From Eledone cirrhosa (lineage: Eukaryota), in assembly GCA_964016885.1 (NCBI GenBank), contig OZ024740.1, forward strand, positions 291,338,001 through 291,402,000: a stretch of DNA of 64,000 nt. Reading direction: 5' to 3'. Position numbers and translations under genes: made by a program. The stretch's first letter is position 1. Every line of letters begins with the position of its first letter. A model generated the notes under the pieces. It made no database searches and had not been told where the DNA came from. It saw only the letters and a list, made by a program, of their open reading frames with translations. This document shows, piece by piece, positions 15,615-50,671 of the stretch.

Positions 15615-15651
<37 letters not shown>

Positions 15652-15686
15652 ATATAAGATCAAAAGATGGTTAAAGGAGTTCCATA

Positions 15687-15757
15687 TATTTTATTATGCG
15701 CATTTCAAAAACAAACATCATCATGCAATAATATTTGTGTTTTCATCAGATAAAATA
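15687..15757 (-). ncRNA. Type I hammerhead ribozyme motif (antisense arm)
   Basis: Reverse complement of 17029-17099. Confidence 0.7.
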
Positions 15758-17028
15758 GGAGAACATGATATGAAGGCTAAAAAACACTTGTGCATAGTGC
15801 AGTTTTAAATCAACATATGAAAAGTGGTTTTAGATTGATGTGTGATATTGGGAAAAATATTTTATTTAGAGAGGGGGGGGAGGGGGAAGATGAAAAGGGA
15901 AGGAGATGAGAGGGAGAGATGGGTGATAGAGAGAAAGAGATAGTTTTTATAACTGAGAGGAGATATATTTTTTACATAGAGAGGTTGAAAACCGTTGGAA
16001 GATACTGTATAAATTAAAAATTTTGAAAATTAACGAAGGGAGGATATGTGCGAGGAAAAAATATTTTATTTAGGGAGGGGGGGGTGGAAAGGATGAAAAA
16101 AAGGGGGAGGAGATGAGAGTGAAGGTGGAGAGGGAGAGATGGGTGATAGAGAGAAAGAGATAGTTTTTATAACTGAGAAAAAGATATATTGTTTTAATAT
16201 AGAGAGGTTGGGAACCGTTGGAAGATAATGTATAAATTAAAGGAATTTGAAAATTAACGAAGGGAAATTATGTATGAAGATAGAGAGAAAAAAATAATTG
16301 TGGGTGAATATTCTAACGTCAAAAAAAGAAATGTATGTATTGTGGCAATTTCAAAATTAGCGAAGAGAAAAATTGTTAAGGTTTGTGTGTAGAAGGATTT
16401 GAGAAAAATAATGTGAAGTTAAAGTTTGTATATTGATTGAATTGATAATATGTGCGAATAAAGAGTTAATATGTATTAATAATGAGTTCGTTGATGGGGA
16501 GAAAAAAATAATAATAAATTAAGGATGAAATTGAGATTAAAAGATTTATGATAGAGAGAAAAAATAATAATGATTGCGGATGAATATTCTAATGTCAAAA
16601 CATGTTATGATTTTACAAGAAGATAGCTCTATCACCCATCTCTCCCTCTCCATCTTCACTCTCATCTCCTCCCCCTTTTTTTCATCCTTTCCACACACAC
16701 ACACCCCCCTCCCTAAATAAAATATTTTTTCCTCGCACATATCCTCCCTTCGTTAATTTTCAAAATTTTTAATTTATACAGTATCTTCCAACGGTTTTCA
16801 ACCTCTCTATGTAAAAAATATATCTCCTCTCAGTTATAAAAACTATCTCTTTCTCTCTATCACCCATCTCTCCCTCTCATCTCCTTCCCTTTTCATCTTT
16901 CCCCCCCCCCCCCTCTCTAAATAAAATATTTTTCCCAATATCACACATCAATCTAAAACCACTTTTCATATGTTGATTTAAAACTGCACTATCCACAAGT
17001 GTTTTTTAACCTTCATATCATGTTCTCC

Positions 17029-17099
17029 TATTTTATCTGATGAAAACACAAATATTATTGCATGATGATGTTTGTTTTTGAAATGCGCATAATAAAATA
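17029..17099 (+). ncRNA. Type I hammerhead ribozyme motif
   Basis: TATTTTAT-CTGATGA-[16-bp stem II with one C.U mismatch, GCAU loop]-GAAA-TGCGCA-T-A/ATAAAATA; perfect 8-bp stem I and palindromic loop III. Confidence 0.72.
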
Positions 17100-17695
17100 T
17101 ATGGAACTCTTTTAACCATCTTTTGATCTTATATATTATGTATACTCCAGTCCCACAAACTGTAGAGTACTTCTTATCCGATATCTGCATTGCTTTATTG
17201 TACTACAATAAAACTCACCTCCTACATCATATATATATGTAGATACACACACACACATATATATATATATATGCAGATACACAAACACACATATATATAT
17301 ATATATATATATATGTAGATACACACATACACACACATATATATGTATATGTTGATACCCACACACACACACACACATATATATATGTAGATACACAAAC
17401 ACATATATATATATATATGTAGATACACACACGCACATATATATATATATATGTAGATACACACCCACATATATGTACATACACACACATATATATATAT
17501 AGATACATACATACATACATACATACATACATACATACATACATACATACATACATGTGTGTGTGCATATATGGATTCAAAAAACTGACAGTCCATTTTA
17601 ATATTATAATTATTATTATAAATATTTTATACATAAATGTTTTAGTATTTTTTTCGAAGAATGTTTATTCTTTACTTTTTTATATAATTGCTAAG

Positions 17696-17750
17696 GTAAA
17701 GGAATTAGAGACTAATCAACCATACAGATCTACCTTTTTATACGTTCCAT
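17696..17750 (+). CDS. IL-17R-like module exon C1 (VKELETNQPYRSTFLYVP)
   Basis: Pyrimidine tract then ctaag acceptor, consensus donor T|gtaagt, 55 nt, phase 0/1. Confidence 0.7.
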
Positions 17751-17849
17751 GTAAGTACAAAAAGTCAAAATATGTAAATAACTTTTCCCATGTTGTTATA
17801 TGATTTTACTCCTACATAATTCTTCTTTTTGTTCTCAACACCCGAGAGT

Positions 17850-18111
17850 ATACACACCTCACACCCTTTCACCACTTGCTCATCTTATTGTTAATTCTTA
17901 TGTTTATTTTTACGTTTATTTTAATTTTTATTTGTTCTCCTTCCCCCTTTTTTCTAAATGTATTTCCACACACCCTCGGAACTCTCTTCCTAACCTATTT
18001 ATCCTGAAGAAGGGCTTATGCCCGAAACGCCCCCCCCCCCCCACTCTCAAGAGCGTGAACCTAATAAACCTTTATTTGCCTGCCTCTCTGCTTTGTTCAC
18101 ATCTAAACTTG

Positions 18112-18115
<4 letters not shown>
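17850..18115 (+). mobile_element. Penelope-like 3' end with degenerate hammerhead core; only in duplicate copy 1
   Basis: CTGAAGA-A-GGGC-TTAT-GCCC-GAAA at 18004-18027, then AATAAA and (TA)n. Homologous to about 52930-53270 and to 58843-58922 on the - strand. Confidence 0.6.
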
Positions 18116-18182
<67 letters not shown>

Positions 18183-18684
18183 CAGTCTGCTTACCTTTAT
18201 GTGGTCATAAATGTATGTGTATGTCAGTGCATGTGTCTGTGTGTCTGTGTGTCTGTCTGTGCCTGTGTGTCGGTGTCTGTGTGTGCATCTGTATGTGTAT
18301 CTGTGTCTGTGTGTGTAAGTATATATATATATATATATGGAGGCATATGGCTTAGTGGTTAGAGCATTGGCCTTGCAATCGAAAGGTTGTGAGTTCAACT
18401 CTCGGACCGGGTGATGTGTTGTTTCATTGAGCAAGAGACTTTATTTCACATTTTCCAGTATACTCAGCTGTAGAAATGAGATGATAGGGACTGGGGTCCC
18501 TATCATTCCACTGCAAAGTGGTCGTGGAGGTGCCACGGCAAAAAAGCACCCACCACTCACTGTAAATGAGGTTGGTGTTAGGAAGGGCATCCAGCTGTAG
18601 AAATCAAGCCAGTATCAGTTCCCGTCCCACCCTTGCAAGCAGGGAAAAGTGGACGTAAAATGATGATGATGATGATGATGATGA

Positions 18685-19220
18685 TAAAAAGTGCAGGGCA
18701 ATCAAAATTGATGGTAGTTACAGAGTAGACCCAGAAAAAGCTGGGATGATCTGATGAATTCCGACCTCACACACTTACATCTCTCTAAGACAATGTCTCT
18801 GGACCAAGATCTTTGGCGCTATGCAGTAATACAGAAGACCCGCCCTGCCTATGTACAAAGCGAAACCTACAGTCAGTAGGCACCTCTTAACCAAATATAC
18901 ACCCCAATCCACTACCCTATCCTCCCACTCCCACCAACAGCACGAGAAAATGAGATTGAGATCGTGTAGGTGTCACGACAAAAAAAAAACACACACAGTC
19001 CACGCTGTAATGTGGCCGTGTAGGTAACACGGTAAAAAGTTCCCAGTTCCACACTGTAAATGTGGTTGGTGTTAGGAAGGGCATCCAGCCATAGAAAACC
19101 TGCCAGATAGTCCTATATGAGCGAGACACGGTCACCCGACCAGCCTTGCCTCAAGTGGGACAACTCCCGTCTAACCCATGCTAGCGTGGAAAATGGACGT
19201 TAAACGAAGATGATGATGAT
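18685..19220 (+). mobile_element. RTE LINE 3' fragment; only in duplicate copy 1
   Basis: Matches the 3' end of the RTE at 47401-49577; ends ggacgttaaacgaagatgatgat. Confidence 0.8.
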
Positions 19221-19824
19221 ATATATATATAAGTATGTTTGTAAGTTTTTTATATTTATCCTAACAGTATTGCTGTGGACAAGACACATATATGTCCATA
19301 ACCTCAGTTGACTGTCACCACATCCATTTATTTCCTTGTAACATCTGTAAAATTTCATATTTCACAGATATGTTTTCTGAATGTCTTTAAAATATTCTCA
19401 TTTTCACTCACAAAAACTACAGCAAGTATCTGTTATATATCACTTCAGATATTTAATCCTTTTTTTATGTAAATGTTGAAGTTGGTGAAAATTGACCCTT
19501 TTTAAAAGAAGATATTGAAGTTGGTGAAAATTGGCCCTTTTTTGAAGTAGATGTTGAAGTTGGTGAAAATCAACAAAATATTGACCTCAAATATAAACAA
19601 CCCCACCCACCCCCACCTGGCCATTTTAGCATCAATTATTTTGTTATATATTTCTCGACTTACACACAAGTATGTACAGTAACTTTACAAACGCATGTAG
19701 TGTATTATGGCTGATGGCCAATTCAGCATTGTTTTACCATTTCTCCCAGTAATAGTATGAGAATTAAAATTTACAATACAATTCTACATTCAAGGCTAAT
19801 CATTATGTTGTCTTTTGTGACAAG

Positions 19825-19896
19825 GTGACCATAACATTTCTTTAGAAAACCAAAATCTATGTGAAGATATTAAAAAGAAAACTTCAGTTTTGCCAG
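19825..19896 (+). CDS. IL-17R-like module exon D1 (CDHNISLENQNLCEDIKKKTSVLP)
   Basis: Acceptor tcttttgtgacaag, donor CAG|gtgaga, 72 nt, phase 1/1; T+GT gives Cys. Confidence 0.65.
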
Positions 19897-19984
19897 GTGA
19901 GAAAACCTATCTAATTGTATATATTGAAAATTAGTATTTCTGTGTTGTCATTTACAAGGTTTTTTTTAAATTGTGTTGATCTAG

Positions 19985-20330
19985 TGGCAGGGGCTGTATC
20001 TATGGCAAGGGGCTGTGTCCTTGACATTCACTAGAGGAAGGGGTCTATGTCCTTGACATTCACTAGTGGCCGTGGTTATGTTCTTGACATTCTCTAGTGG
20101 AAGGGGGCTGTGTCTATGACATTCAGAAGTGGAGGATGCTGTGCCTATGACATTCATTAGTGGAAGGGGGGCTGTGTCTATGACATTCTCTAGTGGAAGG
20201 GAGCTGTGTCTCTAACATTCACAAGTGGAAGGGGCTGTGTCTATGACATTTACCAGAGGAAGGGGGCTGTGTCTTTAACACCCACTAGTAGAAGGGCTGT
20301 GTCATTGGCAAGGGGCTGCATCCGTAACAT
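19985..20330. repeat. Diverged 31-32-bp minisatellite (paralog 34830-35372 is a homogeneous 63-bp dimer)
   Basis: Units of the form ctagtggaaggggctgtgtctatgacatt. Confidence 0.85.
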
Positions 20331-20806
20331 TCACAAAGAACAGTGAGGTTATTGTGATTAAGATGCTTAAATAGTTGCAAGTTAATGGCTGCAGGCAAAA
20401 TATGAGCAAGGAAGGAATTTCATATAGTTGACGTTCTGGATAGGAAAGACTCAGTGCAATGATTAGTGGGAGGTGGGGCTGAGTACATGGGATACAATAT
20501 GGGTGATAAAGTGATAAAAGATGAGTGAAGTTTTAGTGTCTGAGAAAGTTAAGAAAAGAAAAGAAACAGAAGGAAAGAAAAAATACGCACATATACAAGA
20601 ATTTTGTGCATACTACACCTTCAATCAATTTTGCTGCCTTAATGCCCCCCCCCCCCCAAATAAAAATACGTATGATCAAGGATTACTAAAAGTATCTCTT
20701 TTCTTGTGGGGCTCCTTCCAAATAATGTAGTATAACATTTTTTTTATTCAAGTAAGCTGTAATTTCCTGATAATTTACCAAAGTATTTTAATTGATGTCT
20801 CTGCAG

Positions 20807-20955
20807 AACCAGTGTCAATTGAGTGTAAGAAAAATGGAAATCTTTTAGAGATTATCTTAAGAAATTTGAATGAAGGAGCTACACGATATAAAGTATTTAT
20901 TACTTTGAAAGATGATCCACTACTGATACCATTATGTCAACAAACAATCCATGTG
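20807..20955 (+). CDS. IL-17R-like module exon A2 (EPVSIECKKNG...QQTIHV)
   Basis: Same splice sites as A1; GCA>TCA (A>S). Confidence 0.8.
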
Positions 20956-21552
20956 GTAAATATATATATATCATCTCATATTTATGTATGGGATAAATAT
21001 TTGATTGTGTTGAATATAACCATTACTCTCATTATCATTACTGTCATCATTACGTCATTTTTCTTATTCTTCTTCTTCCATTTATTCCTTAGAGGGCCGA
21101 GGGGGCAGAGTCCTCAAACAATCCTTCTAACAAGTCCTGTCAGAAGCAACCATCTCCAATGGATCCAGCTGGATCCCCAAGTTAAACCAGCCAAGTTCAT
21201 GAATGTTATCCAATCATCTTGCTCAGGGTCTACCGCTGGGTCTCTTCCTGGTTGGTTTTTCCCTGTAACATCTGTCCAGTGATTCTTTCCTGAGGCATTC
21301 TAACCACATGCCCCTAGTATCGGAGCTGTGATCTCTTAATTCAGAGAAACAGCCTCTCTACCTGGAGTGACTCTCTGATCTCCGAGCTATGCACTCTATC
21401 GAGCAACATTACTCCAAAGACCCTTGGAGGAACCCCATTTTGGCTGTTTAAATTCTTTGACCTCTTTGTTCTCATTTTCAGTTTAATATTATTTTTCTAT
21501 GAGAAAAATGGGGTTTGCAGAATCATTAGAGTATTGGACAAAATGCCTTGCA

Positions 21553-22893
21553 CTAAAACTAGCTGTCCATGGGAACTTCTATATGCAGATAATCTATCTC
21601 CCATAGTTGAATCTATGGCTTTACTAGAGAAGAAATTCCAAACATGGAAGCATGGTTTAGAATCAAAAGGTCTTAAAGTTAACTTGTCTAAGACTAAAGT
21701 TCTAGTATATAGAAAGGAAAAAAGGGCACAGGTGCCCTTTGGGAAATGGCCATGCTCAGTGTGTAGGAAAGGAGTAGGTAGAAATTCCATTCTGTGCCCC
21801 AAATGCAAACTATGGGTACATAAAATATGTAGTGGGATCACAGGCAAGCTATCTAAGAATGTAGATTTTATATGTGGCCGATTCTCAGGTGCAGTAAGTA
21901 GCAAGTGCCCACAAGATACTAGCTCCTTCAACTGCCCAGATGGTAGTAGATACTTTCTGTTACCTGGGTGACAAAATCAGCAGTGGAGGAGGGTGCTCTG
22001 AAAGTACAGTAGCCAGAGTTAGAACAGGATGGAAAAAGTTCAGAGAGCTAATACCACTGTTGGCCACAAGGGGTTTTTCTCTAAAAATGAAAGGCAGATT
22101 GTATGATGCTTGTATATGAAGAGCAATGTTACATGGCATTGAGACATGGACATTGTACGCAGAGGACCTGCGCAGATTGGATAGGAACGAAGCATGCATG
22201 CTCCGTTGGATGTGTAATAGTAATATACATGAACAGCAAAACATAAATGAACTAAATGAGAAATTAGGAATAAGAGGGATCAGATGCTGTTTACTCAAGA
22301 GTAGATTACATTGGTATGGTCATGTGATGCGCATGAAAGACGACAGCTGTATAAAAAAGTGCAGGGCGATCAAAATTGATGGCAGCTACGGAGTAGGTAG
22401 ACCCAGAAAAACCTGGGATGACATGATAAAATCTGACCTTGCAACACTTACACCTCTTTAAGACAATGTCACTGGATTGAGACCTTTGGCGCTACGCAGT
22501 AATACAGAAGACTTTACATACAAAGTTAAACCTACAGTCAGTAGGCACTTCTTAACCAAATATACACACCAATGCACTACCCCTACTCCATCCTCCCACT
22601 TCCACCCACACCACCCTTTCTCTGTAAAGTTATGTTGGTACCACAGAATATCCAGTCTAGGTGTCACGACAAAAAGCACCCAGTCCACGCTGTAAAGTGG
22701 TCATGTAGGAAACACGGTAAAAAGGCTCCCAGTCCACACTGTAAATGTGGTTGGTGTTAGGAAGGGCATCCAGCCATAGAAAACCTGCTAGATACAGTCC
22801 TATACGAGCGAGACATGGTCACCCAATCAATTCCCGTCTAACCCATGCTAGCGTGGAAGATAGACGTTAAACGATGATGATGATGATGATGAT
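21553..22893 (+). mobile_element. 5'-truncated RTE LINE inserted into a SINE; only in duplicate copy 2
   Basis: CPWELLYADNL..GLKVNLSKTK and GRPRKTW motifs, (GAT)n tail; the site at about 11335-11365 in copy 1 is empty. Confidence 0.9.
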
Positions 22894-24653: not shown

Positions 24654-24769
24654 TATCATATAAAACTGTTATCAAAATTATTAGTTTTTAACTTAATGTT
24701 ATGTGATTTTAAAAATAAATAGGCACAAATTTTGAAATGTAAAATAAATAGATTTAATTTTGTTTTCAG

Positions 24770-26136: not shown

Positions 26137-26194
<58 letters not shown>

Positions 26195-27030
26195 CCTAGT
26201 TGATGTCTAAATTCCAATGAAAGAACCTTGTGTTTATGTTAGAAACCAGCTCTTTATAACATAATAAAACTTGAAGGACATACAAACGTGCAAACATACA
26301 TACATACATGGTGGTGCCAACTCATTTTCGAGTACGGCCATTACTTTATATCCATGTAGGAGAACCCCTACTGATGCGCTGAACGAGTGTGACTTTTTAA
26401 TCCAGCCAGCAGAGAGATCTCCAGATAAAAAGCAATGCCTGTGCCATGAAGCTTTTATAGTGAGCAAAGGCACTGCACAAAGCCAGTCCCACTCTACCTA
26501 GGTAGCAGAAGCTGTCAATTGTTTCTACAGAGCCCTCCCAGAGATTGGTGGTACTTGTTTCCTGTGGCTGTTTGCTGCTTGCTGTCCCAGCACAGCTGCT
26601 GCATGTGAAGCCTATACCCACATATATATATACATATACATATATATATAAATATACATACATATATACATATACATATATATACATACATATATATATA
26701 CATATATATATACATGTATATATATATATATATATAGATATATATATATACATATATATAAATATACATATACATACATATATATATACATACATATATA
26801 TATACATATATATATATACATATATACATATACATATATACATATACATATATACACATATACATATACACATATACATATATATATACATATACATATA
26901 TATACATATACAAATATACATATATATATATACATATACATATATATATATACATATATATATATACACATATATACACATATACATATATATATATACA
27001 CACATATACATATACACACACACATATATA

Positions 27031-27062
<32 letters not shown>

Positions 27063-27810
27063 CATACACACATATACATACATATACACATATACATATA
27101 TATATATACATATATACATATATATACATATATACATATATACATATACACACATACATATACATATATATATATACATATACATATATACATATGCATA
27201 TATCTATATATATATACATATACATACATATACATATACATATACATATATACGCATACATATACATACACATACATACATATACATATACATACATATA
27301 GATATACATATATATATATATATATATACATACATATATATATATATATACACATATATATACATACATATATATATATATACATATATATATACATACA
27401 GACATACATATATATACATATACACACATATATATATACATATATATATATACATATACATATATATATACATATACATACATACATATATGTACATATA
27501 CATATACATATATATATACATACACATATATATATATATATATACATACATATACACATATATATACATATATATAACATATACATATATATATATACAT
27601 ATACATATATATACATATATACACATACACATACATATATATATACATATACACATATATACATATATATACACATATATACATATATATATAGATATAC
27701 ATATACATATATATACATATATATATATACATATACATACATATATATATACACATATATACATACATATACATATATATACATATATACACATACACAT
27801 ATATATACAT

Positions 27811-27859
<49 letters not shown>

Positions 27860-28666
27860 CACATATATACAGATACATACATATATACATACACATACAT
27901 ATACATACATATATATATATACATATGGTGGCTGCCAACTCGTTTTCAAGTACGGCCACTACTTTATATCCATGTAGGAGAACCCCTACCAATGCGCTGA
28001 ACGAGTGTGACTTTTTAGTCCAGCCAGCGACTTGAAAACTCTGGTACAAACACTACACCTGTAACAATTATTGACACATAGTGCTGGGCCCATGGTACCC
28101 TGTGACGACAAGTGCAGAGAGATCTCCAGATATAAAGCAATGCCTGTGCCATGAAGCTTTTATAGCGAGCAAAGGCACTGCACAAAGCCAGTCCCACTCT
28201 CTTAACCAAGATGATATTTACCTAAGGCTAAGGGGTCATCTCTCCCGGTGATTTTGGATGGCCATTGACTCTTAAGAGCTCCTTTGCCCTTTGACAGGTT
28301 TTGTTTTTAGTCCAGCAGGATGTCCAAAGTCACCCTCCTCACCAAGAAACCTTGGTGGGGTTGCCAGTTTAGTCGCCAACGACCCGACCATGAGACGGGT
28401 TGTACTGGGATACATGTTATCAGTAGCACCAATACATATACACATATATATACATACACATATATATATATACATACATATACACATATATATATACATA
28501 TATATACATATACATATATATACATATACATATATATATATACATATACATATACATATACATATGTCAGGTCATACACACATATGCACATATATATACA
28601 CACATATACATACACATATACACATATATACATACATATATACACATATATATATATATATCTATC

Positions 28667-28700
<34 letters not shown>

Positions 28701-28777
28701 TATACATATACATATATATATACATATACATACATATATACATATACATATATATACATACATATATATATATATAC

Positions 28778-28863
<86 letters not shown>

Positions 28864-28989
28864 ATATACATATACACATATACATATATACATATAGATA
28901 TATACACATATACATATACACATATACATATATATATATATATACATATACGTATATATATACATATACACATATACATATATATATAC

Positions 28990-29034
<45 letters not shown>

Positions 29035-29090
29035 TACACATATACACATATATATATACACACATATACATATACACACACATATATATA

Positions 29091-29122
<32 letters not shown>

Positions 29123-29227
29123 CATACACACATATACATACATATATACATATACATACATATATATATACATATATACATATATACAAGTACACACATA
29201 CATAAACATATATATATACATATATAC

Positions 29228-29264
<37 letters not shown>

Positions 29265-29389
29265 CATACATATACATATATACACATACATATACATACA
29301 CATACATATACATATACATACACACATCTATACATATACATACATATATACATACATATATATATATATATACACATATATATACATAC

Positions 29390-29424
<35 letters not shown>

Positions 29425-29961
29425 CATACATACACACATATATATATACATATATATATACATATATATATACATATACATATACATATACATATATATA
29501 TATATATATACATATACATACATACATATATATAAATATACATATACACATATATATATATACACATATATATATATATATACATACATATACACATATA
29601 TATACATATATATACATATACATATATATATATACATATACATATACATATATCTACATATATATATATACATATATATATATATACATATATATATCTC
29701 TATACATATACATATATATATATATATATAGACATACACATACATATATATACATATACACATATACACATATATATATACATATACATATAAATATATA
29801 TACGCATATATACATACATATACATATATATACATATATATGCATACACATATATATGCATATATATGCATACACATATATATACATATACATACATATA
29901 TATATATACACATATACATATACATATATATATACATACACACATACACATACATATACAT

Positions 29962-30009
<48 letters not shown>

Positions 30010-30041
30010 ATATACACATACATACACATACATATACATAC

Positions 30042-30087
<46 letters not shown>

Positions 30088-30174
30088 GGTTGGAGAACCC
30101 CTACTGATGTGCTGAACGAGTGTGACTTTTTAGTCCAGCAAGCGACTTGAAAACTCTGGTACAAACACTATGTA

Positions 30175-30230
<56 letters not shown>

Positions 30231-30325
30231 CATATATATATATATATATATATACATACATATACACATACATATACATACACACATATACATATGCATA
30301 CACATACATATATACATATACATAC

Positions 30326-30360
<35 letters not shown>

Positions 30361-31015
30361 CATACATATATATATATATGGTGGCTACCAACTCATTTCC
30401 GAGTACGGCCACTACTTTATATCCATGTAGAAGAACCCCTACCGATGCGCTGAACGAGTGTGACTTTTTAGTCCAGCCAGCGACATGAAAACTCTGGTAC
30501 AAACACTACACCTGTAACAATTATTGACACATAGTGCTGGGCCCATGGTACCCTGTGATGACAAGTGCAGAGAGATCTCCAGATATAAAGCAATGCCTGT
30601 GCCGTGAAGCTTTTATAGTGAGCAAAGGCACTGCACAAAGCCAGTCCCACTCTCTTAACCAAGATGATATTTACCAAAAAGAAGAACAAGTCAACATCAT
30701 TGGATACCATCAGAGTTGCAGGTGTTATATCAGAGTTTTCCTTCTCCTGGAATTCTGCCTTGACAAAGGCTAAGGGGTCATCTCTCCCGGTGATTTGGGA
30801 TGGCCATTGACTCTTAAGAGCTCCTTTGCCCTTTGACAGGTTTTGTTTTTAGTCCTGCAGGATGTCCAAAGTCACCCTCCTCACCAAGAAACCTTGGTGG
30901 GGTTGCCAGTTTAGTCGCCAACGACCCGACCATGAGACGGGTTGTACTGGGATACATGTTACCAGTAGCACCAACTGGTGACCTGACATAATATATATAT
31001 ACACATATATATACA

Positions 31016-31047
<32 letters not shown>

Positions 31048-31730: not shown

Positions 31731-31917
31731 CATATACATATATATATACACATACATACACATACATACACATACATACACATACATACACATACATACA
31801 TATATACATACACATACATACACATACATACATATATACATACACATACATATACATACATATACATATATATATATATAATATATAAGATCAAAAGATG
31901 GTTAAAAGAGTTCCATG

Positions 31918-31988
31918 TATTTTATTATGCGCATTTCAAAAACAAATATCATCATGCAATAACATTTGTGTTTTCATCAGATAAAATA
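31918..31988 (-). ncRNA. Type I hammerhead ribozyme motif (antisense arm)
   Basis: Reverse complement of 32391-32461. Confidence 0.7.
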
Positions 31989-32390
31989 GGAAGACATGAT
32001 ATGAAGGTTAAAAAACACTTGTGAATAGTGCAGTTTTAAATCAACATATGAAAAGTAGTTTTAGATTGATGTGTGATATTGGGAAAAAAAATTGGGGGGG
32101 GGGGTGAAAAAGAGGAGGAGATGAGAGTAAAAAGTGGAGGGGGAGGAGTATAATGAGGAAGGATGAGATAGGAGGAGAGATGGGTGATAGAGAGAGAGAG
32201 ATAGCTTTTATAACTGAGAAAAATATATTGTTTTACATACTCTCATCTCCTCCTCTTTTTCATCCTTTCCACCCCCACCCCCCTCAAAAAATTTTCCCAA
32301 TATCACACATCAATCTAAAACTACTTTTCATATGTTGATTTAAAACTGCACTATTCACAAGTGTTTTTTAACCTTCATATCATGTCTTCC

Positions 32391-32461
32391 TATTTTATCT
32401 GATGAAAACACAAATGTTATTGCATGATGATATTTGTTTTTGAAATGCGCATAATAAAATA
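32391..32461 (+). ncRNA. Type I hammerhead ribozyme motif
   Basis: Same as 17029-17099 except two stem II changes that keep pairing (U.G to U-A, A-U to G.U). Confidence 0.72.
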
Positions 32462-33394
32462 CATGGAACTCTTTTAACCATCTTTTGATCTTATATATTA
32501 TGTATACTCCAGTCCTACAAACTGTAGAGTGCTTCTTATCCGATATCTGCATTGCTTTATTGTACTACAATAAAACTCACCTCCTACATATATATATATA
32601 TATATATACATATGGTGGCTGCCAACTCGTTTGCGAGTATGGCCACTACTTTATATCCATGTAGGAGAACCCCTACTGATGCGCTGAACGACTGTGACTT
32701 TTTAGTCCAGCCAGCGACTTGAAAACTCTGGTACAAACACTACACTTGTGACAATTACTGACACATAGTGCTGGGCCCATGGTACCCTGTGACGACAAGT
32801 GCAGAGAGATCTCCAGATATAAAGCAATGCCTGTGCCATGAAGCTTTTATAGCGAGCAAAGGCACTGCACAAAGCCAGTCCCACTCTCTTAACCAAGATG
32901 ATATTTACCAAAAAGAAGAACAAGTCAACATCATTGGATACCATCAGGGTTGCAGGTGTTATATCAGAGTTTTCCTTCTCCTAGAATTCTGCCTTGACAA
33001 AGGCTAAGAGGTCATCTCTCCCGGTGATTTTGGATGGCCATTGACTCTTAAGAGCTCCTTTTCCCTTTGACAGGTTTTGTTTTTAGTCAAGCAGGATGTC
33101 CAAAGTCACCCTCCCCACGAAGAAACCTTGGTGGGGTTGCCAGTTTAGTCGCCAACAACCCGACCATGAGACAGGTTGTACTGGGATACATGTTACCAGT
33201 AGCACCAACTGGTGACCTGACACCAACATACATACATACATACATACATACATACATGTGTGTGCATATATGGATTCAAAAAACTGACAGTCCATTTTAA
33301 TATTATAATTATTATTATAAATATTTTATACATAAATGTTTTAGTATTTTTATCGAAGAATGTTTATTCTTTACTTTTTTATATAATTGCTAAG

Positions 33395-35372: not shown

Positions 35373-35716
35373 ATATTTACAAAGAACAGTGAGGTTATTG
35401 TGATTAAGATGCTTAAATAGTTGCAAATGGCTGCAGGAAAAATATGAGCAAGGAAGGAATTCCATGGAGTTGATGTTCTGGATAGGAAAGACTAAGTGCA
35501 ATGATTAGTGGGGGAAGGGCTCAGTATGTGGGATACAATATGAGTGACAAAGTGATGAAAGATGAGTGTAGTTTTAGTGTCTGAGAAAGTCAAAAATGAG
35601 ACCCACAAAAATACGTATGATCAAGGATGACTAAAAGTATCTCTTTTCTTGCATCAAAAACATTTCAAGACATCTGATATATGTTAAATTGATATTTTCC
35701 TTTCATTTACTTTCAG

Positions 35717-36850: not shown

Positions 36851-37289
36851 TGTTAGTGTATATTGTGTGTGTATGTTTGTGTGGGTGTGTGCATCTATGT
36901 TAATTTTTACACTACTTAACAACTGGTACTGTTTGTCTATGTCATATAACTCAGCATTTAGACAAATAGGGATTGACAAAATAAGTGCTGAACTTGAATA
37001 ATCAGCATAACTCAAGATGGCACTGAACTTCCATGGCTGCAGACCAAAGACTGAAATTAGTAAAAGAATAATAGACAGAGGTATTTTATAGTATTTTGTG
37101 TGTTATATTTCAACAGCTGTTAGGCTGGATATTTAGTGTATAATCATACTTAATCTTTACAGCACAACTATGTACAAAGTATGTCATGATATGCTGTAAA
37201 TAATGTAATTAATAACTGTTGACTGTATTAGATTTCTATTTTATCTTCTTGTATCTGACTCTAAGTCTTTTTATCTATTTGATTTACAG

Positions 37290-38206
37290 TGCTACTTCAA
37301 AGGAGAATTTCTTCAAAATATTTATTGTGCACAGACATAAAGCAGGATATGGCTAAACAACAAGGCCTGATTATATCTTTCCCTCACCCTATGGAACATT
37401 GTGCTGCTACCAAAGAACTAACAATAATCTTAAACTGTTATACAAGCTTACATGTAAGAAACTCCCAGGAAATGAAATTAAAAGAAAACCAATCACTTCA
37501 AAAACAAATTCAGCAAGTTTATGACAATTTTAACACCTTCATTATCATCCATTCTGATGGTTTGTATAATCACAACCAGAATCAGGGAAAAAATAAGATT
37601 GGACAAGAAATGGCTGATTTTACAATTGATCTTGTTAAATTCTGCACTACAGATGGTTTATATCAGTTAAAAAATATCTATCATGTCACATTTGATGAAG
37701 ATCCAAGTATATTTGAATACTCTGAGCTATGTTCTGATTTCCAAGATAACATGTATTACTTATACAGACCAAATGTTTTTGGAAATAATGGTTTGGATTT
37801 GAATCAAATTGAAAATTTCCTCAATGATATAAATGACCAACAGGCAGATGTACAACCAAGTGGACACCATATTAAATTCCATTTGAACTGGAAAGAAAGT
37901 AGAGAAATACAAAATTTAAATGATGCTTTGATTTCTCGAGACTATAAACAAAAAGTGTTTCCTGATTGGTATGTTGACATGTTCCCCCAATCAAAACTTA
38001 ATAAAAATTTGTTTAGTCTCAATTTAGACACAATTTCAAAAAAGATACAGACTGAAAATGATAGTGTTATGGAAAGTAGCTTGAACTTAGATTTTCAGTC
38101 AAATAATATTTTGCTAGAACCACCCAGACTGCTAGATAACATTTCAGAAATTGATAGTGACCAAATATCTGTATTTCTTGAGAAAATTAATATGCATAAA
38201 TACTGA
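37290..38206 (+). CDS. IL-17R-like terminal exon: cytoplasmic SEFIR-like domain and acidic tail
   Basis: Acceptor gatttacag and a 305-codon open frame. Motifs GLIISFPHPMEHCAATKELTIIL, FNTFIIIHSDGLY, DFTIDL, KNIYHVTFD and MYYL follow the SEFIR order. Recognised by eye, not by HMM. Confidence 0.78.
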
Positions 38207-42284: not shown

Positions 42285-42545
42285 TCCATCAAGCATTTAC
42301 CATACTCTGAATGCCTTGCTTCCCTGGGCATGGATACATTAAAGTTCCAACATCTGGCAATTGATTTGGTAGACATCCACAAGATTATTAACCATCTTTC
42401 CAACGACAACCCTGAGTACCTTTTTGAATTCCATGTGTCTAATACCCGTGGACATGCTTACAAAATCAGAAAACAGTACAGCTCCCATGACTTTTGGAAA
42501 CATTTTTTCATGCTCAGAGTTGCTAAAGCATGAAACAACCTGCAT
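42285..42545 (+). mobile_element. CR1-type LINE 3' fragment
   Basis: DLVDIHKIIN..NTRGHAYKIRKQ..FF..RV motif. Confidence 0.7.
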
Positions 42546-44067
42546 CTACACTACACCTGATATTCCTCCTCCATACACTCACACATGCGCGGGGGGGGGG
42601 GGGGTATCATGACTCATACACTGTTTACTTAACTTTTGTACATTATTCTATGTATTATACATGCACTTTTGACTACCTTTTCTGATGACTGCTCCTGACA
42701 ACGGTGCACAATAATTTTCCTTATTATCGGTAGCTCTCCTTTCATCCTTACGGGGTCGATAAAATAAAGCACCAGTAATGCACTAAGGTCGATTTAATCG
42801 ACTTTTCCCTCTCCCCCAAATTGCTGGCCTTGTGCCTATAGTAGAAATCATTATTATCGGTAGCTCTTAAATCAAGGGAAATAACTCCGTTTCTTTCTAT
42901 TCAAGGGAGATTATACCATCTCTTTAATGATAAATTGAATCCTCACAAAATGCTATTAACCAATCAATCGTTTTATAGCAGATATCAACATAGATCTGTG
43001 GTTCTTAACCTTTTTCTATCACAGCACCCCTTGAGATTTTGAAATTCCACCCTACACATAAGACAAAAGAACTTGAATTTTCAGGTCAAATTATCACCTA
43101 CTGAGCTGCTGCTATTTAATTAACTACTATTATAAATAAATACAAATAACAGAAAATTACCAATAAAAATATTTGATAAGAAGTAAAACAAAAAAAAAGT
43201 TGTTTTTCTGGGCCTCCTGTACACTTAAGAACTGAATCTGGCACCCACTGCCTTAGATGTTTAACCCTTTAGCATTTAAACTGGCCGTATCCAGCCAGAA
43301 TTCTCTCCCCTCTTTTGGTTTAAACTGTAACCAGCCACTCATACTGGTGTTATGGTATTGTTTTCAAAATAAATAATATCAAAATCTCAGATTCGATATT
43401 ATGTGAGGTAATTATGTGAGATATATCCTTTACTGTGAAAATACAATAGTAAATATAGAGTAATGTAAATGCTACAGGATTAAACTGAACATCAACTGCC
43501 TCTACCTCCCCAATCTAGAACAACCTGCAAAGATCATGGACATTGTTCTTTTGTTTTTGACTAGGAGATTAAAAATAAATTACAAGTTGAAATATTTATT
43601 CATATATTTAAGCAATTTAAACATATAGAGGTAGTAAACCATGGCAGACTGGGAGAGATATCTAATATATCTTACTTTTAAAAAACAACAAGAATTATAA
43701 ACAATTTGTAATGTTATTTATTAATGTAAGAATCATAAACAATTTATAATGTTGTTTATACAACTGTGAATAATAACAATTCCTGATAGAAAAAAAACAA
43801 GGAAAAGAAAGAGAACAACAGGAGGCAAAAGAAGCATTTAAAAAATAGTGAAAAAACAGACGACTATAAAACAACTAAAAGTTTCTTTTGTTGAATCTTT
43901 TCATAGTTTCCACCATGTACTGAAATATCTTGTTTATAGTTGGTAGATCTTTGACAATATATAAATTGTTAGAAAGCTTCAGCACCCCTTGTTGTAGTGT
44001 GTGGCTCTTCTCCCTTCCGCGCCTTTTTTATTAACCACTTCCCTTTTTTTCACTTTTTAGTATTGTA

Positions 44068-44446
44068 TGAGGGCAATCCCAAAAGTAAGGTCTCCTTCCG
44101 ATATTGCAACTTTTCCGTTCAAATCCTGTGGATGGTGCTTCGGGAAACCTCAGGAACAAAAATGCAGAGAGCATCCAGAGTGATCCGCCGATCATTACGC
44201 ATGTTTTCCTCGGAAGGAGACCTTACTTTTGGGATTGCCCTCGTATATAATAACTGCGCGATATTCGCACTTGGCGGCAGCATTCAACGGGAGCTCCATT
44301 CTCAACGGCTGCCAAGCCAAGATTGAGCATCCCAGCGAAGTACGTGCATGCTTGTTTGGGAGTGAAGGAAGCACCGATCACAACAGTGTTGCCAACAGCC
44401 GTACGAACAGTTTCTCTGCGTCCCCATTGCTTTGGGATTACCCTCG
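44068..44446. mobile_element. Tc1/mariner-type MITE with ~35-bp TIRs (44068-44243) and a second right-end copy ending at 44446
   Basis: TA-tgagggcaatcccaaaagtaaggtctccttccga ... tcggaaggagaccttacttttgggattgccctcg-TA. Confidence 0.75.
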
Positions 44447-44504
44447 TATATAGAAATACATTATCATTATCATCATTATCTAACCTCCACTTTCCCTGAT
44501 AGTA

Positions 44505-45250
44505 TCATCATCATCGTTTAACGTCTATCTTCCATGCTAGCATGGGTTTAGACAGGAATTGTCCCACTTGAGGCAAGATTGGTTGTCTTGCTGGTATAGG
44601 ACTGTCTGGCAGGTTTTCTACAGCTGGATGCCCTTCCTAACACCAACCACATTTACAGTGTGAACTGGGAGGTTTTTACCATGTTACCTACATGGCCACA
44701 TTACAGCATGGACTGTGTGTTTTTTATCGTGACACCTACACGATCTCGATCTCATTTATTTAGGACTGGATGTTGTGGTACCAACATAACTTTACAGAGA
44801 AAGGGGTGGTGTTGATGGGGGTGGGATGGGTAGTGTATTTTTTGGTTAAGAGGTGTCTACTGATTGTAGGTTTCGCTTTGTACATAGGCAAGGCGGGTCT
44901 TCTGCATTACTGCGTAGCGCCAAAGATCTCGGTCCAGTGACATTGTCTTGGAGAAGCGTAAGTGTGTAAGGTCGGAATTTATCAAATCGTCCCAGGTTTT
45001 TCTGGGTCTGCCTACTCTGTAGTTTCCATCAATTTTGATCACCCTGTACTTTTTTTATACAGCTGTCGTCTTTCATGCGCATCACGTGACCATACCAACG
45101 CGTTAGATCATCTGCATATAGAAGTTCTCATGGGCAGCCGGTCCCAAACTCCTCTGTTAAAGCCTGAAGGGCAATAATAAATAGGAGGGGGCTAAGGACA
45201 GAGCCCTGATGAACAACTTTTACGCTAAATTCTTCACTATATTCGTTGTT
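44505..45250 (-). mobile_element. RTE LINE 3' fragment with internal deletion
   Basis: Homologous to 47401-48880; CPxELLYADDL is joined directly to RWYGHV. Confidence 0.85.
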
Positions 45251-45369
45251 ATATATATATAGTAATAATAATAATAAATGTATATATATATATATATATA
45301 TATCTATATGAAAAACAACATTTTCTCATTCAGAATATATTTTATAACTCTTTAGAACATATTATGTAA

Positions 45370-46500
45370 TACGGGGGAGACTTTCTTCTGTTTTGGACAC
45401 CAGAAATCATTACAGAGAAGAATAAAACAAAAAGAACAGGAGCCATGACACAACCCTGCTTCGTAACGTTTGTGATACCAAAGGGTTCAGAGCATTCGTC
45501 ATTTGACATAATTGATACTCTCATGAAAAGACAAGATGACATTTGGCATATTGTCAGGTATGCCAAGCTTTTTGAGGATTCCAGAGAGCTTTGTGATTGA
45601 CAGTGTCAAAAGTTTTGATTAAATCAACAAAGACCATAAACAGATCCTGGTTCTTTTCGTAAACCTTTTCTGCAACCTGGCAAAGGGGGAAATCATGTAC
45701 CTCAATCTCTGCAGAAACCACATTGATTTTCAGGGTAGATATCATCATCAAGTCTGGGGGTAATTCTGTTGAGAATGACATGTACAAGCACCTTGCCAGC
45801 AATACAGAAAAGGGAGATGTTGCGCGAGTTGATGCAGATAGATGTTTTTACCTTTGTTCTTGAAAAGATGGATTATAGATGCATCCCTGAAGTCTTGAGA
45901 GACATGTTCAACCTTTCAGATTTCCAGAAATAGCCGATGGAGCTTACAAACCAGTTTTTACCACCATATTTGAAAATTTCAGGTTGGATATCATCTTTAC
46001 CAGGAGCTATATTTGATGACAGTTACTTGATAGCAGCTAGTATTTCATTTAAGCTTGGATTGAATGTTAATTCAAGTACTTCTGGCCCTTGTGGAATAGA
46101 TGATATTACATCTTCATCAATGTTTGACTCAGCATTTAGGACTTTTTCAAAGTGTTCCTTCCATCAAGAAAGTACAGCAACTTTGTCTGTCTATAGGGTT
46201 GTACTATCAGGGGATAGAACTGGATTTGACCTTCTTTCCCTTGGACCATATACTGCATTCAAACCATTATAAAATGCCCTTGAGTTCTTTTTATCAACAA
46301 CTTCTTGTAGTTCAGATACTTTAGCCGCCTACCAGGCATCCATCTTTCTAGATGAGGACTGTGCCTGCTGCTTACAATCTTTATAGGCTTTTTTAGTTGA
46401 GTTTTTATCTCCAATACAAAGCCTGTGTAGGCTATGCATCTAACTGATAAGGTTCTGGACATCTGAGTTGCTTTCATCAAACTAGCCCTGGTGTTTTCTT
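45370..46500 (-). mobile_element. Decayed RTE/BovB-like LINE reverse transcriptase
   Basis: VFVDLIKTFDTVNHKALW and KQGCVMAPVLF motifs with stops and frameshifts. Confidence 0.75.
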
Positions 46501-46559
46501 ATAGGAAATCTTAAGACTTCTATGGAGGCTGCATATGAGGCATCATTGAGCACTAAGGT

Positions 46560-47310
46560 ACATACCCTTTTGAGAAAACCCCTGCATGGATAGAAAATGT
46601 ATAGTCTGCAGATTAAGCCCACAAATTAACTGTAAAACTAGGAATGTAGCATATAGCATAAGATGTATGGAGTGACAGTGTAAGAATATGAACACGAGTT
46701 ACATAGGTGAGACGACTTGTAGCATAGAAGAAAGAATAAAAGAACACAGGCAAGAACTCCAAGAGGGGAAAAAACTCATCAGTGCACCACCAGCATGCCA
46801 GAATGGAACACGGGAGCACACTAAAGAACATTGAGATAAAAATTATATCCACACAGAACAGATGTTATGTTCTGACAGATCACAGAGGCCACAAACATAA
46901 ACGAATTTGAACCAAAACTAAACAGAAAACATGAATGGAATAGCAACAACCTCACAACGTAGTAACTCAGAACAAGATAAAGACGTACAGAGACACACAA
47001 GAACTAAATTAATAAAACAAACGAAACACAGATAGAACAACCAACCAGCTAGTGACAAGTAAATAAACAAATGCATATATATTTTTTTTAATTAATAAAA
47101 ATACACACACACAAACCCGGATATAACACATGCACAGCCCAAGTACACAGCTCACAAAGACTAGATGGTGTAAGACAGAACAAAGGAGAAACCCAAAATA
47201 ACAACAAAAGTAGTCACTGAGGAGGTTACAGAATGAGTGATGAAAGAGCTTTGATGACAATCAACAACTAAATAACTATCTGTTTAGTTTTACTAATAAT
47301 AAATTGAAGT
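46560..47310 (+). mobile_element. Penelope-like element remnant: GIY-YIG endonuclease and 3' end
   Basis: Manual translation NCKTRNVAYSIRCME*QCK..SYIGETTCSIEERIKEHR ... EPKLNRKHEW; degenerate CTGAGGA..GAAA core at 47217-47251, then AATAAA. Confidence 0.75.
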
Positions 47311-47400
47311 GAAACTCAACAAGTGTGTGTGTGTTTTTTTATTGGCAGCATGACATAAAAGTCTTGCAAAACAAATACAAAAATGATGTATGCATAAATC

Positions 47401-49577
47401 ATCATCATCATCATCAACGTTTAACGTCCGTGTTCCACGCTTGCATGGGTTTGGACGGGGGTTTTCCCACTTGAGGCAAGAGTGATTGTCTTGCTCGCAT
47501 AGGACTGTCTGGCAGGTTTTCTACAGTTGGATGCCCTTCCTAACACCAACCACATTTACAGTGTGGGTCTGGGAGGTTTTTTACCGTGTTGCCTACACGG
47601 CCACATTACAGCGTGGACTGTGTGTTTTTTTGTCGTGACACCTACACAATCTCATTTGTTTTGGCCTGAATGGTGTGGCACCAACATAACTTTACATAGA
47701 AGGGGGCGGTGTGGATGGGGTGGGGGTGGTGGGACGGGGGTGTATTCTGTTAGAGATGCCTACTGACTGTAGTAGGTTTTACTATGTATTTAGGTAAGGC
47801 GGGTCTTCTCTATTACTGAGTACCGCCAAAGGTCTCGGTCCAGTGACATTGTCTTGGAGAGGTGTAAGTGTGTGAGGTCGGAGTTTATCAGCTCGTCCCA
47901 GGTTTTTCTAGGTCTGCCTATTCCGTGGCTACCGTCTATCTTTATTGCCCTGCACTTTGTTATACAGCTATCGACTTTCATGCGCATCACGTGTCCATAC
48001 CAACGTAGCCTTCTCTCGAGTAAACAACATCTGATCCCTCTTATTTCTAATTTTTTCTTTAGTTCGTTTATGCTTTGCCGTTCACGTATATTACTATTAC
48101 ACATCCAGCAGAGCATGCAAGCTTCGTTCCTCTCTAGTCTGCGTATATCCTCTGCACACAATGCCCAGGTCTCACTGCCATGCAACATTGCTGTTCGTAT
48201 GCAGGCATCATACAACCTGCCTTTCGTTTTTAGGGAGAACCCTTTAGCAGCTAATAGTGGTATAAGCTCTCTGAACTTTTTCCATCCAGTTCTGACTCTA
48301 GCTACTGTACTTTCAGAGCACCCTCCCCCACTGCTGATTTTGTCACCCAGGTAACGGAAGCTGTCCACTATTTCTATAGAGCCCTCTGCGCAGTTGAAAG
48401 AGCTAGTATTTTGTGGGCACTTGCTGCTACTTATTGCACCAGAGCACCGCCCACATGTGAAATCTATGTTCTTAGTTAGCTTACCTGTGATCCCACTACA
48501 TCTTTTATGCACCCATACTTTGCATTTCTGACACAAAATGGAGTTTCTACCTACGCCTTTCCTACACACTGAGCATGGCCACTTCCCTGAAGGGACCGCC
48601 GCCTTATTTTCTTTCCTACAAACTAGAACTTTGGTCTTAGCCAGATTAATTTTAAGGCCTTTTGATTCTAGGCCGTGCTTCCATGTTTGGAATTTCTTCT
48701 CTAGCTCGGCCATTGATTCAGCTATGAGTGTTAGGTCGTCTGCGTATAGGAGTTCCCATGGGCAGCCGGTCTTGAACTCCTCTGTTATAGCCTGAAGGGC
48801 AATAATAAATAGTAGGGGCTGAGAACAGAGCCCTGATGGACGCCAACTTTTACGCTAAACTCTTCACTATATTCGTTGTTAATTCTAACCTTGCTGACTG
48901 TTTCTTTATACATGGCTTGTATAGCTCTCACAAGCCATTCGTCGACACCTAGTCGAAGGCTTTCTCCAAGTCGACAAAAGCTAAGTAGAGGGGTTTACTT
49001 TTAGCTAGGTACTTCTCCTGTAGTTGTCGTACAATGAAAAGAGCGTCTGTGGTACTTTTGCCTGACACAAACCCGAACTGCATTTCATTTAGGTCAATTC
49101 TCTCTCTGATTAGTTGCGCTATTACTTTTTCCGTGACCTTCATGACCTGGTCGATTAATTTAATGCCTCTATAGTTACTCCTATCTAGGGCATCTCCTTT
49201 ACTCTTATAACAGTTAACGATGATGCTGCTATGCCAGTCCTTCGGAACAACCCCATTCTGTACGACTTGGTTAACTATCCGGGTGACCATGGTGTGTCCC
49301 ACCGTGCCAGATGCCTTCAGCATCTCAGCAACTATTTCCGAAGGCCCAGCCGCCTTACCCGTCTTCATATCCTTGATTGCCTTACTTATTATACTACCCT
49401 CGACTAACACTGCTGGTCCCTCTATTGGGTCGGTGTGGGGGAGACTGTCTTTCTCCTCATTTAGTAGCCTTTCATAGTGACACTTCCAAGCTACCTTCTT
49501 ATCAGTGTCGGTGATGGCAAGTACGCCGTCATCATTAAGTACACACTTCTCCCCGACAATATCACGGTTTTCCTTGA
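47401..49577 (-). mobile_element. RTE LINE, 5'-truncated, largely open reverse transcriptase
   Basis: ORFs 48949-49410 (KAAGP..NYRGIKL..FVDLEKAFD) and 47790-48713, with YADDL at about 48745; (GAT)n tail. Confidence 0.92.
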
Positions 49578-50138
49578 CACATATATATATATTTATTTAT
49601 CTGCAAATGTGCAGGTCAAACACAAGAGAAATAGGACTCACTGCTTAGCCATAATATATGAATATTTAAATTGTACTTCAGTATTGAGTACTTTTTCTCA
49701 TGGCTGCCAATAACACATGGATATATATATATTTAGTCCAAACTAATAAGATCGTGTAGGTGTCACAACAAAAAACACACAGTCCACGCTGTAATGTGGT
49801 CATGTAGGTAACATGGTAAAAAGTTCCCGGTCCACACTGTAAATGTGGTTGGTATTACGAAGGGCATCCAGCCGTAGAAAACCTGCCAGTTAGTCCTATA
49901 CAAGCGAATAGTTATTATTGGATGGTTAGTACATTTTAATTTATTCTTTAATCGATCTGTATTCTCCTTTCCTTCGAAGACAATATATTCGTCACTCTGG
50001 CGGTTTTCTATCCCCTATAATTAAAAACATACTTCTTTGTGTACTTCTCTCTATATACTGATTTATAAAGAGCCCGGAATCTATTCCTTGAGCTCATTAA
50101 ATTATTGGAGATTAACGCAAGTCTTTAACTCTGTTTTT

Positions 50139-50172
<34 letters not shown>

Positions 50173-50182
<10 letters not shown>

Positions 50183-50671
50183 AGAAATTAAAAGATGGTT
50201 AAAAAAGTTCCATATATTTTATTATGCGCATTTCGAAAACAATATCATCCTGGGACAAAAATTGTGTTCTCATCAGATAAAAAATTATTTACAGCTGTTT
50301 TCATTTTGACAGCGTTCCTGATCAAAAGTCTCTCTCTCTCTCCTCCTTCTTTCTTTCTTTTTCCTTCTTTCCTTTTCTTCATTTTTCCTATTTTTCTCTT
50401 ACTCTTATATTTTTGTCATATGTAGACTGCACACTTTCTTGTTCACAAGTGTTTTTAGGCCTCATATCATGTTACCTTATTTTTATCTGATGAGAACACA
50501 ATTTTTGTCCCAGGATGATGTTTTCGAAATGCGCATAATAAAATATATGGAACTTCTTTAACCATCTTTTAATTTCTTCTTTAATATATACTCCAGTTCT
50601 ACCAACTGTTGAGTGCTACTTATCTGATATATTCATAGTTTTATTGTTCTACAATATTACTCACCTCCTAC
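50173..50671 (+). mobile_element. Fold-back Penelope-like element, third diverged instance, with hammerheads at 50215-50284 (-) and 50479-50545 (+)
   Basis: ~110-bp inverted arms; CTGATGA-GAACAC..GTTTTC-GAAA-TGCGCA-TA/ATAAAA; same tail ending ctcacctcctaca; flanked by (TA)n. Confidence 0.7.

Follow-up and report, generated by a model that had tools for sequence, protein, structure and literature searches.

Why would three short, non-coding inserts in one stretch of an octopus genome each pair a hammerhead ribozyme with its own antisense copy? The question arises in Eledone cirrhosa, in 64,000 nt of contig OZ024740.1 (positions 291,338,001 to 291,402,000; hereafter the window), where the inserts lie at 15651-17227 (E1), 31880-32588 (E2), and 50173-50671 (E3). 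Judged by their sequences, all three are the 5′-truncated 3′ ends of an autonomous Penelope-like element (PLE), taken from subfamilies that bear open reading frames (ORFs) and broken at variable points. We put a probability of about 0.65 on the reading that they are head-to-head stubs of this element, which likely belongs to the Hydra clade, each likely formed by priming of the reverse transcriptase (RT) from both strands of a cleaved (TA)n target on the same sense RNA.

Three inserts with one layout

We found again the layout that an initial annotation of this DNA had described: inverted arms, six hammerhead cores, a one-sided tail, and TA/CA flanks. In a self-comparison of the window, the arms of E1 (15652-16151 and 16627-17134) are 97.2% identical over 508 nt, those of E2 (31880-32129 and 32238-32499) 93.9% over 262 nt, and those of E3 (50173-50283 and 50480-50587) 95.5% over 111 nt. 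An 88-nt tail is confined to the right arm of each insert, and TA/CA tracts border both ends. The arms, tail, and (TA)n of the annotated parts list stand, but the “spacer” does not stand as a part of its own: it is where the longer arm (antisense in E1 and E2, sense in E3) extends at its 5′ end beyond the paired region. As annotated, the ORF list of the window holds no frame proper to E1, E2, or E3, a lack that comes from truncation. The features are listed below, with unit positions referring to the full-length coding element described in the next section (UTR, untranslated region; pLTR, pseudo-long terminal repeat; Inr, initiator).

15509..15650, unstranded: TA/CA microsatellite left of E1; the right tract is at 17229-17556
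15651..16626, minus: E1 tail-less arm, unit positions 2703-3689 (3′ UTR and pLTR), holding the “spacer”; 97.7% over 991 nt to the unit at locus L031
15687..15757, minus: E1 left-arm hammerhead; core 15695-15749, predicted cut after 15695
16627..17139, plus: E1 tail-bearing arm, unit positions 3190-3689; 96.5% over 509 nt
16966..16973, plus: Inr-like site TC/ATATG; first A at 16968 (left arm 15818) is unit position 3520, putative capped RNA 5′ end and hot spot in copies
17029..17099, plus: E1 minimal type I hammerhead; predicted cut 17091/17092 at AUA
17140..17227, plus: E1 tail, first 88 nt of the next unit (5′ UTR), between the two putative priming sites; runs into 5′ UTR and ORF in L031
30991..31880, unstranded: TA/CA microsatellite left of E2
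31878..32239, minus: E2 tail-less arm, subfamily B; hammerhead core 31926-31980; 92.8% over 376 nt to the unit at locus L143
32240..32501, plus: E2 tail-bearing arm; 3520-equivalent site 32330; hammerhead 32391-32461, predicted cut 32453/32454; 95.1% over 267 nt
32502..32589, plus: E2 tail; 100% to the L143 tail
50146..50177, unstranded: (TA)16 left of E3
50173..50283, minus: E3 tail-less arm, older subfamily C; hammerhead core 50223-50276
50284..50585, plus: E3 tail-bearing arm including the “spacer”; 3520-equivalent site 50418; hammerhead 50479-50545, predicted cut 50537/50538; about 86% over 440 nt to C-type copies with ORF remnants
50586..50673, plus: E3 tail; 84.5% to the L031 tail

The parent element

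Over 991 nt, the E1 left arm, with the “spacer” counted in it, matches the 3′ UTR of the full-length coding element L031 at 97.7% identity, so E1 lacks coding capacity because it is the truncated end of a coding element. E2 matches a sister unit, L143, and E3 matches older subfamily C, whose copies keep ORF remnants at ~45% to 80% identity. The Penelope-like origin given in the initial annotation is borne out: L031 has an RT/GIY-YIG frame of 821 aa, and L143 a frame of 808 aa.

In a genome search, two of the 30 best copies of the E1 right end continue past the tail. The extended copy L031 reads, in order, short inverted arm, pLTR, tail, 821-aa open frame, 3′ UTR, hammerhead, and (TA)n without a tail. 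Because the pLTR is followed there by the tail and then the frame, the tail is the first 88 nt of the next unit. The unit is 3,689 bp long, its size being due to a long 3′ UTR and linker, and its outer ends, the element end and the tail end, are fixed and 88 nt apart. Frames of at least 800 aa occur at 9 of the 16 loci examined, and 201 nt of the element 5′ end were 100% identical in 40 of 40 scored matches (the best-scoring only), both of which argue for a young family. Exact sequence patterns counted across the 3.0-Gb genome gave 10,019 tail ends, 7,138 tail-less ends in TA, and 185 tail-to-5′ UTR junctions.

The identity of the protein as an RT with a GIY-YIG nuclease rests on motifs, atlas comparison, and modeled fold. 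The 821-aa frame contains a YRDD motif; its fold model has a pLDDT (predicted local distance difference test) of 82, with telomerase TERT as the top PDB structure matches; and its C-terminus scores 0.94 to 0.95 to GIY-YIG clusters in the atlas, with the GIY-YIG motif columns present in an alignment of 14 of the 28 homologs. Pfam and PDB sequence searches with the ORF protein gave no match. Hydra-type motifs are present, namely DKT (SDKTN), the CxCX5C linker (CNCRIKNKC), CxxC (CNLC..NEK), and CxH (INRR..CLH), with no CCHH, and RLRWT stands where most homologs have RWK, so RWT is a variant. The sense hammerhead near the element 3′ end and the insertion into (TA)n are also found, as in the Hydra clade. 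By motif comparison with section 11 of PMC8557442, the element likely belongs to that clade, and we regard it as a new family within a known clade, with a published layout. Between RT and nuclease, the frame also has a low-confidence linker insert of ~75 aa, rich in N, P, and S (L031:3030-3260) and missing from most homologs, which recalls the N-rich inserts described in PMC3846280.

Two arms, probably from one source

Architecture was read in the first 80 loci on contig C1 by position, taken from exact tail-end matches and holding 85 tail ends. A tail-less inverted arm adjoins 61 of these, an inverted arm with a tail adjoins 3, and an inverted internal piece adjoins 2; another 4 continue into a unit, and 15 have no detected partner arm, some of them being long-gap misses. 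A microsatellite follows 80 of 81 tails and also flanks 60 of 61 opposite ends, in agreement with the (TA)n targeting first annotated. Target-site duplications are unreadable inside TA tracts.

The tail-less arm is longer in 40 of the 61 pairs, within 8 nt of its partner in 13, and shorter in 8. In 40 of the 48 unequal pairs, each arm thus has sequence absent from the other, since the tail-less arm is longer and the tail is on its partner. Neither arm can be nested in the other, so the simple fold-back of one strand that the initial annotation had favored fails, and two priming events are needed. The tail-bearing arm is little more than tail in 12 of 61 pairs and too short for the hammerhead core; therefore, the hammerhead there has no full antisense partner.

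At 13 polymorphic sites, the two arms of an insertion agree throughout in 77% of 62 pairs, compared with 6% of random pairs; among the 62 are a duplicated locus, pairs repeated at L201, and ~3 cross-insertion pairs. One RNA or one donor therefore supplied both arms, unless later conversion did, and two unrelated RNA templates were rejected on the same comparison. Short and long arms have haplotypes in common.

A miniature inverted-repeat transposable element or foldback DNA transposon was also rejected: the tail is at one end, the interiors vary, the homology is to the 3′ end of a retroelement, and no conserved interior is framed by terminal inverted repeats of fixed, symmetric form. At two loci (L133 and L155), the inverted part is an internal piece with no 3′ end detected. 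These pieces resemble L1 twin-priming inversions.

A recurrent inner end, often with an extra G

Unit position 3520 (window 16968, TC/ATATG), 124 nt upstream of the predicted ribozyme cut, is the inner end of 54 of 101 arms, and 4,746 arms genome-wide start there with a preceding base other than C. A class of ~425 bp with both arms ending at 3520 is common. Subfamily C has the same stop, its similarity to E1 starting at 3520, and the E1 arms themselves read through the site. Since arms ending at 3520 are also joined to other positions or to host DNA, and far fewer arms have their inner end at 3648-3657, where the palindrome is longer, a palindrome alone is inadequate to explain the stop.

Where both arms end at 3520, seven of the eight inserts of at least 2 nt start with C or end with G (in the reverse control, none starts with G and two end with C), and six of six single-base inserts are G or C. 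Contigs from public sequencing runs, perhaps of the assembly's own sample, contain these joints and inserts too. Copying of an RNA cap is expected to leave an extra G, and the extra G at 3520 is probably the trace of a capped RNA 5′ end. In a linkage test for strand transfer across 3520, mismatched haplotypes were not in excess among tail-bearing arms. The literature searched described for PLEs neither an inner end that is fixed and marked by G nor twin priming on one template; most subscription papers, including the older Penelope structure papers, were outside that search, so novelty is not established.

The hammerhead and its antisense partner

The initial annotation had proposed a hammerhead search, which succeeded for the core and not for Rfam. 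Six cores occur in the window, one per arm of E1-E3, against none in 100 shuffles; no hammerhead was among the Rfam matches listed, with no check that the Rfam models detect the published minimal PLE motifs. The annotated minimal type I fold with a palindromic helix III recurs in our analysis: CUGANGA, GAAA, and UH form the core with three helices, stem I has 6 to 8 bp, and the helix III palindrome, AUGCGCAU, is predicted to pair between two copies at −10.5 kcal/mol. The predicted 3′ cleavage products start at 17092 (E1) and 32454 (E2), the positions given earlier. Core conservation among genomic copies also held, with both core parts kept in 240 of 268 located copies. The helices are paired in 98% of cells; covariation is weak, with one two-sided change from a single event.

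Stability of the monomer hammerhead is no better than that of shuffles (z from −0.74 to +0.35), and the active fold is predicted to lie ~5 kcal/mol above the minimum-energy fold. Minimal hammerheads are reported in PMC4209133 to cut barely as monomers, one giving no monomer cleavage. In the genome, 106 pattern matches have an arm starting exactly at the predicted cut, corresponding to ~74 true cases on the basis of 38 true junctions among 41 inspected; 25 of the first 100 (a GC class, probable slippage) were not inspected. This number is ~2.5-fold above three controls (~13, 45, and 31), or 56 against 16 on matched flanks, which were hand-tallied and do not fully control for microhomology. Cleavage may therefore occur in vivo, and the cut-site arms amount to ~1.6% of the 3520 class. 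We infer that nearly all of the copied RNA is uncut at the hammerhead, in line with in vitro data in PMC11167929.

When E2 and E3 are folded whole, the core is predicted to be buried in a long hairpin in either direction. This part of the annotated silencing idea stands, but not its use as the reason why two copies are tolerated in introns. E1 and E2 do lie between exons of a plus-strand gene for a single-pass membrane protein, as annotated. However, the inverted layout is the genome-wide default (61 of the 85 tail ends), E3, which lies outside the mapped gene, shows it as well, and the 12 tail-bearing arms mentioned above have no core. Given a layout that is the default everywhere, many unpaired hammerheads, and the absence of monomer cleavage in PMC4209133, no protective role is needed for the antisense arm.

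A putative mechanism and its alternatives

In the mechanism that we propose, the GIY-YIG nuclease would cut both strands of a (TA)n target, with priming at the element end by one strand and at the tail end by its partner. The two cDNAs would run toward the RNA 5′ end, often as far as the capped start 124 nt upstream of the hammerhead cut, and their 3′ ends would be joined via microhomology or short inserts. The hammerhead would mostly be uncut in the copied RNA, and the antisense arm would be a by-product of insertion rather than a silencing device. A PLE protein has been reported in vitro to cut and extend both strands, with two start sites that define the tail and no requirement for hammerhead cleavage (PMC11167929).

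Several observations weigh against this same-template reading. The arms of E1 itself differ at two shared polymorphic sites, an exception to the arm identity; the inner ends of long arms are uncorrelated (15 pairs, rho −0.05); and shared haplotypes also fit fold-back or later gene conversion. As for the cap, G precedes 3520 in 44 of the first 100 matches (hand count), and non-C “ATA” sites of the partner arms have G in 5 of 12, a control that led us to drop the G share as stand-alone cap evidence. The single-base G/C inserts may be the templated base at 3519, and the insert sample is small. Contig C1 gave 29 unit 5′ ends, of which 16 extend past 3520 and 13 fall short of it (L337 being ambiguous), with none stopping at the site itself. 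A single capped mRNA template predicts 3520 stops in ORF-spanning copies, so the 0 of 16 found, compared with 54 of 101 arms (Fisher P = 2 × 10−5), goes against it. This result could reflect circles, multimers, template jumps, or short RNAs from 3′ pLTRs.

One tentative extension, which we hold to be possible though less probable than its negation, accommodates this by invoking two template pools. Both target strands would copy one capped, uncut, linear sense RNA to give short-armed stubs, while full-length, promoter-bearing partial tandems would be copied from a template with no cap, most plausibly a circle produced by hammerhead cutting and ligation, or else a multimer or template jump; in a variant, truncated copies may supply the short capped RNA from their 3′ pLTR, with mobilization in trans. 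The 0/16 against 54/101 split and the excess of arms at the predicted cut favor it, and circles were put forward in PMC4209133. So does a single insertion at L048-L050 (contig C6, 38.07-38.09 Mb), in which an inverted arm, tandem 3.66-kb units, and a tail form an array with six junctions and four full junction-to-junction units; the units differ by 0 to 4 substitutions, and their frames are all broken. Similarly, the span of L124 (90-3689 plus tail) corresponds nearly exactly to a single permuted unit. Copies L056 and L017, which start at unit positions 17-18, also come near to the length of one unit. The array and the permuted copy fit a circle without proving it, since tandem arrays can come from unequal recombination; moreover, the 29 unit 5′ ends show no sharp one-lap stop, and haplotypes common to short and long arms give no sign of a separate short lineage. 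If the two-template reading were true, the circle hypothesis would be squared with the dispensability of cleavage in vitro, and the antisense self-priming model of PLE palindromes would be replaced.

The remaining explanations make one strand, one separate family, or one artifact responsible for the pairs, and are less probable still. Fold-back, in which one cDNA snaps back or an antisense RNA self-primes (the latter proposed in PMC3846280), accounts for haplotypes common to both arms, for the 13 of 61 pairs within 8 nt of symmetry, and for 7 junctions with a perfect ATAT palindrome. We consider it rather unlikely given the 40 of 48 unequal pairs in which neither arm contains the other, the 12 tail-bearing arms that are little more than tail, and the arms ending at 3520 that are joined elsewhere; a combination, in which fold-back is joined by a second primed cDNA, is possible. 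The non-autonomous, retrozyme-like family that the initial annotation proposed, with an antisense arm that silences the ribozyme and so allows intron residence, would suit the lack of ORFs in E1-E3, the common ~425-bp class, and the predicted burial of the core. We nevertheless find it very improbable: E1-E3 fall outside that class and break at three different points, 19 symmetric short junctions comprise 12 different sequences, homology extends into ORF-bearing units, and many copies have no paired hammerhead. Tandems seen in the family are 3.66-kb coding units only, and the short head-to-tail repeats of retrozymes (PMC7229834) were not seen. Nor was a lineage separate from the coding element, given the shared haplotypes and the 97.7% identity to the coding unit. 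Palindromes are a known artifact of long reads, and chimeric fold-back in the assembly was considered for that reason. Its probability is negligible, as the arms are asymmetric, with the tail on one side, lie 3% to 6% apart, and have fixed outer ends in thousands of loci. The joints recur in the public-run contigs noted above, among whose listed pieces none spans the E1 junction.

Host locus and neighboring features

A segmental duplication (10.5-20.3 kb and 20.7-35.1 kb) repeats three exons of the membrane protein gene, at 10592/20806, 12574/24779, and 17696/33395, and later exons follow at 35707 and 37289-38191. E1 and E2 lie in paralogous copies of the duplicated intron, yet belong to different subfamilies with different junctions, and are therefore independent insertions into TA-rich tracts. 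The cytoplasmic exon (37283-38206, plus strand) has 62% identity to uncharacterized Octopus proteins and no Pfam match; an atlas score of 0.79 to SEFIR/TIR-like domains is a lead only.

Remains of other non-LTR retrotransposons lie at 47790-49596 (minus strand) and at 164-1537, 21318-22461, and 61.3-63.7 kb (plus strand); they comprise RT with a PHD finger by Pfam and further frames resembling long interspersed nuclear elements. The window also holds a 26-bp satellite of ~120 copies and multi-kilobase TA/CA tracts with an interleaved, repeated ~1-kb unit (6247-9356 and 26622-30379).

Significance and comparison with known systems

The object itself is ordinary: truncated copies, with a published layout, of a PLE family whose clade has already been reported from octopus. 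Its value is that of a natural experiment, in which the junctions of thousands of insertions bear on PLE transposition. The origin of PLE inverted repeats, the RNA that is copied, and the role of the hammerhead are stated to be open in PMC3846280, PMC8557442, and PMC11167929. A young family of ~10,000 copies, with intact frames, a candidate RNA start, and two putative priming sites, makes those questions testable. Several thousand long inverted repeats in an octopus genome are also a possible source of double-stranded RNA.

The layout, the (TA)n targeting, and the opposite-strand hammerheads are already published. The closest relatives are endonuclease-containing PLEs of the Hydra clade, including Hydra-1_Obim of Octopus bimaculoides and Penelope-13_HM (Craig et al. 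2021, PMC8557442). Shared with that clade, as described there, are the C-terminal GIY-YIG, DKT, the CxCX5C linker, CxxC/CxH, the lack of CCHH, a sense hammerhead near the 3′ end, and (TA)n targets; Penelope-13_HM, in the supplement, has a 5′-truncated inverted copy and hammerheads on both strands. The differences are a 3.69-kb unit where the clade is generally below 3 kb (a tendency, not a strict criterion), RWT in place of RWK, the ~75-aa low-confidence linker insert, and an 88-nt tail in place of the usual 30 to 40. The hammerhead of Hydra-1_oBim (2,507 bp) is unlike ours, so that element is of a different family.

Canonical PLE insertions (Penelope of Drosophila virilis, Adineta Pen2a, and Anolis Poseidon PAc) likewise have partial tandems with pLTRs, an adjoining inverted 5′-truncated copy, a tail at one end, an Inr-like element in the pLTR, and two RT start sites (PMC3846280, PMC2377424, PMC11167929); the fixed inner end with its extra G and the same-haplotype, non-nested arms, for which we found no earlier report, set the Eledone insertions apart. 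Metazoan PLE minimal type I hammerheads have the same conserved core, long helix II, and short palindromic helix III (Cervera and De la Pena 2014, PMC4209133), where opposite-strand pairs 100 to 700 bp apart were noted and put down to truncated PLEs. The usual G-C closing pair of helix II is kept in subfamily C and is A-U in subfamilies A and B. Non-LTR retrozymes share the type I hammerhead, the lack of an ORF, and a proposed PLE origin, but are head-to-tail repeats of a fixed 150- to 450-bp monomer (PMC7229834; bioRxiv 10.64898/2026.07.22.740005), whereas the inserts described here are head-to-head, variable-length pairs of a coding element.

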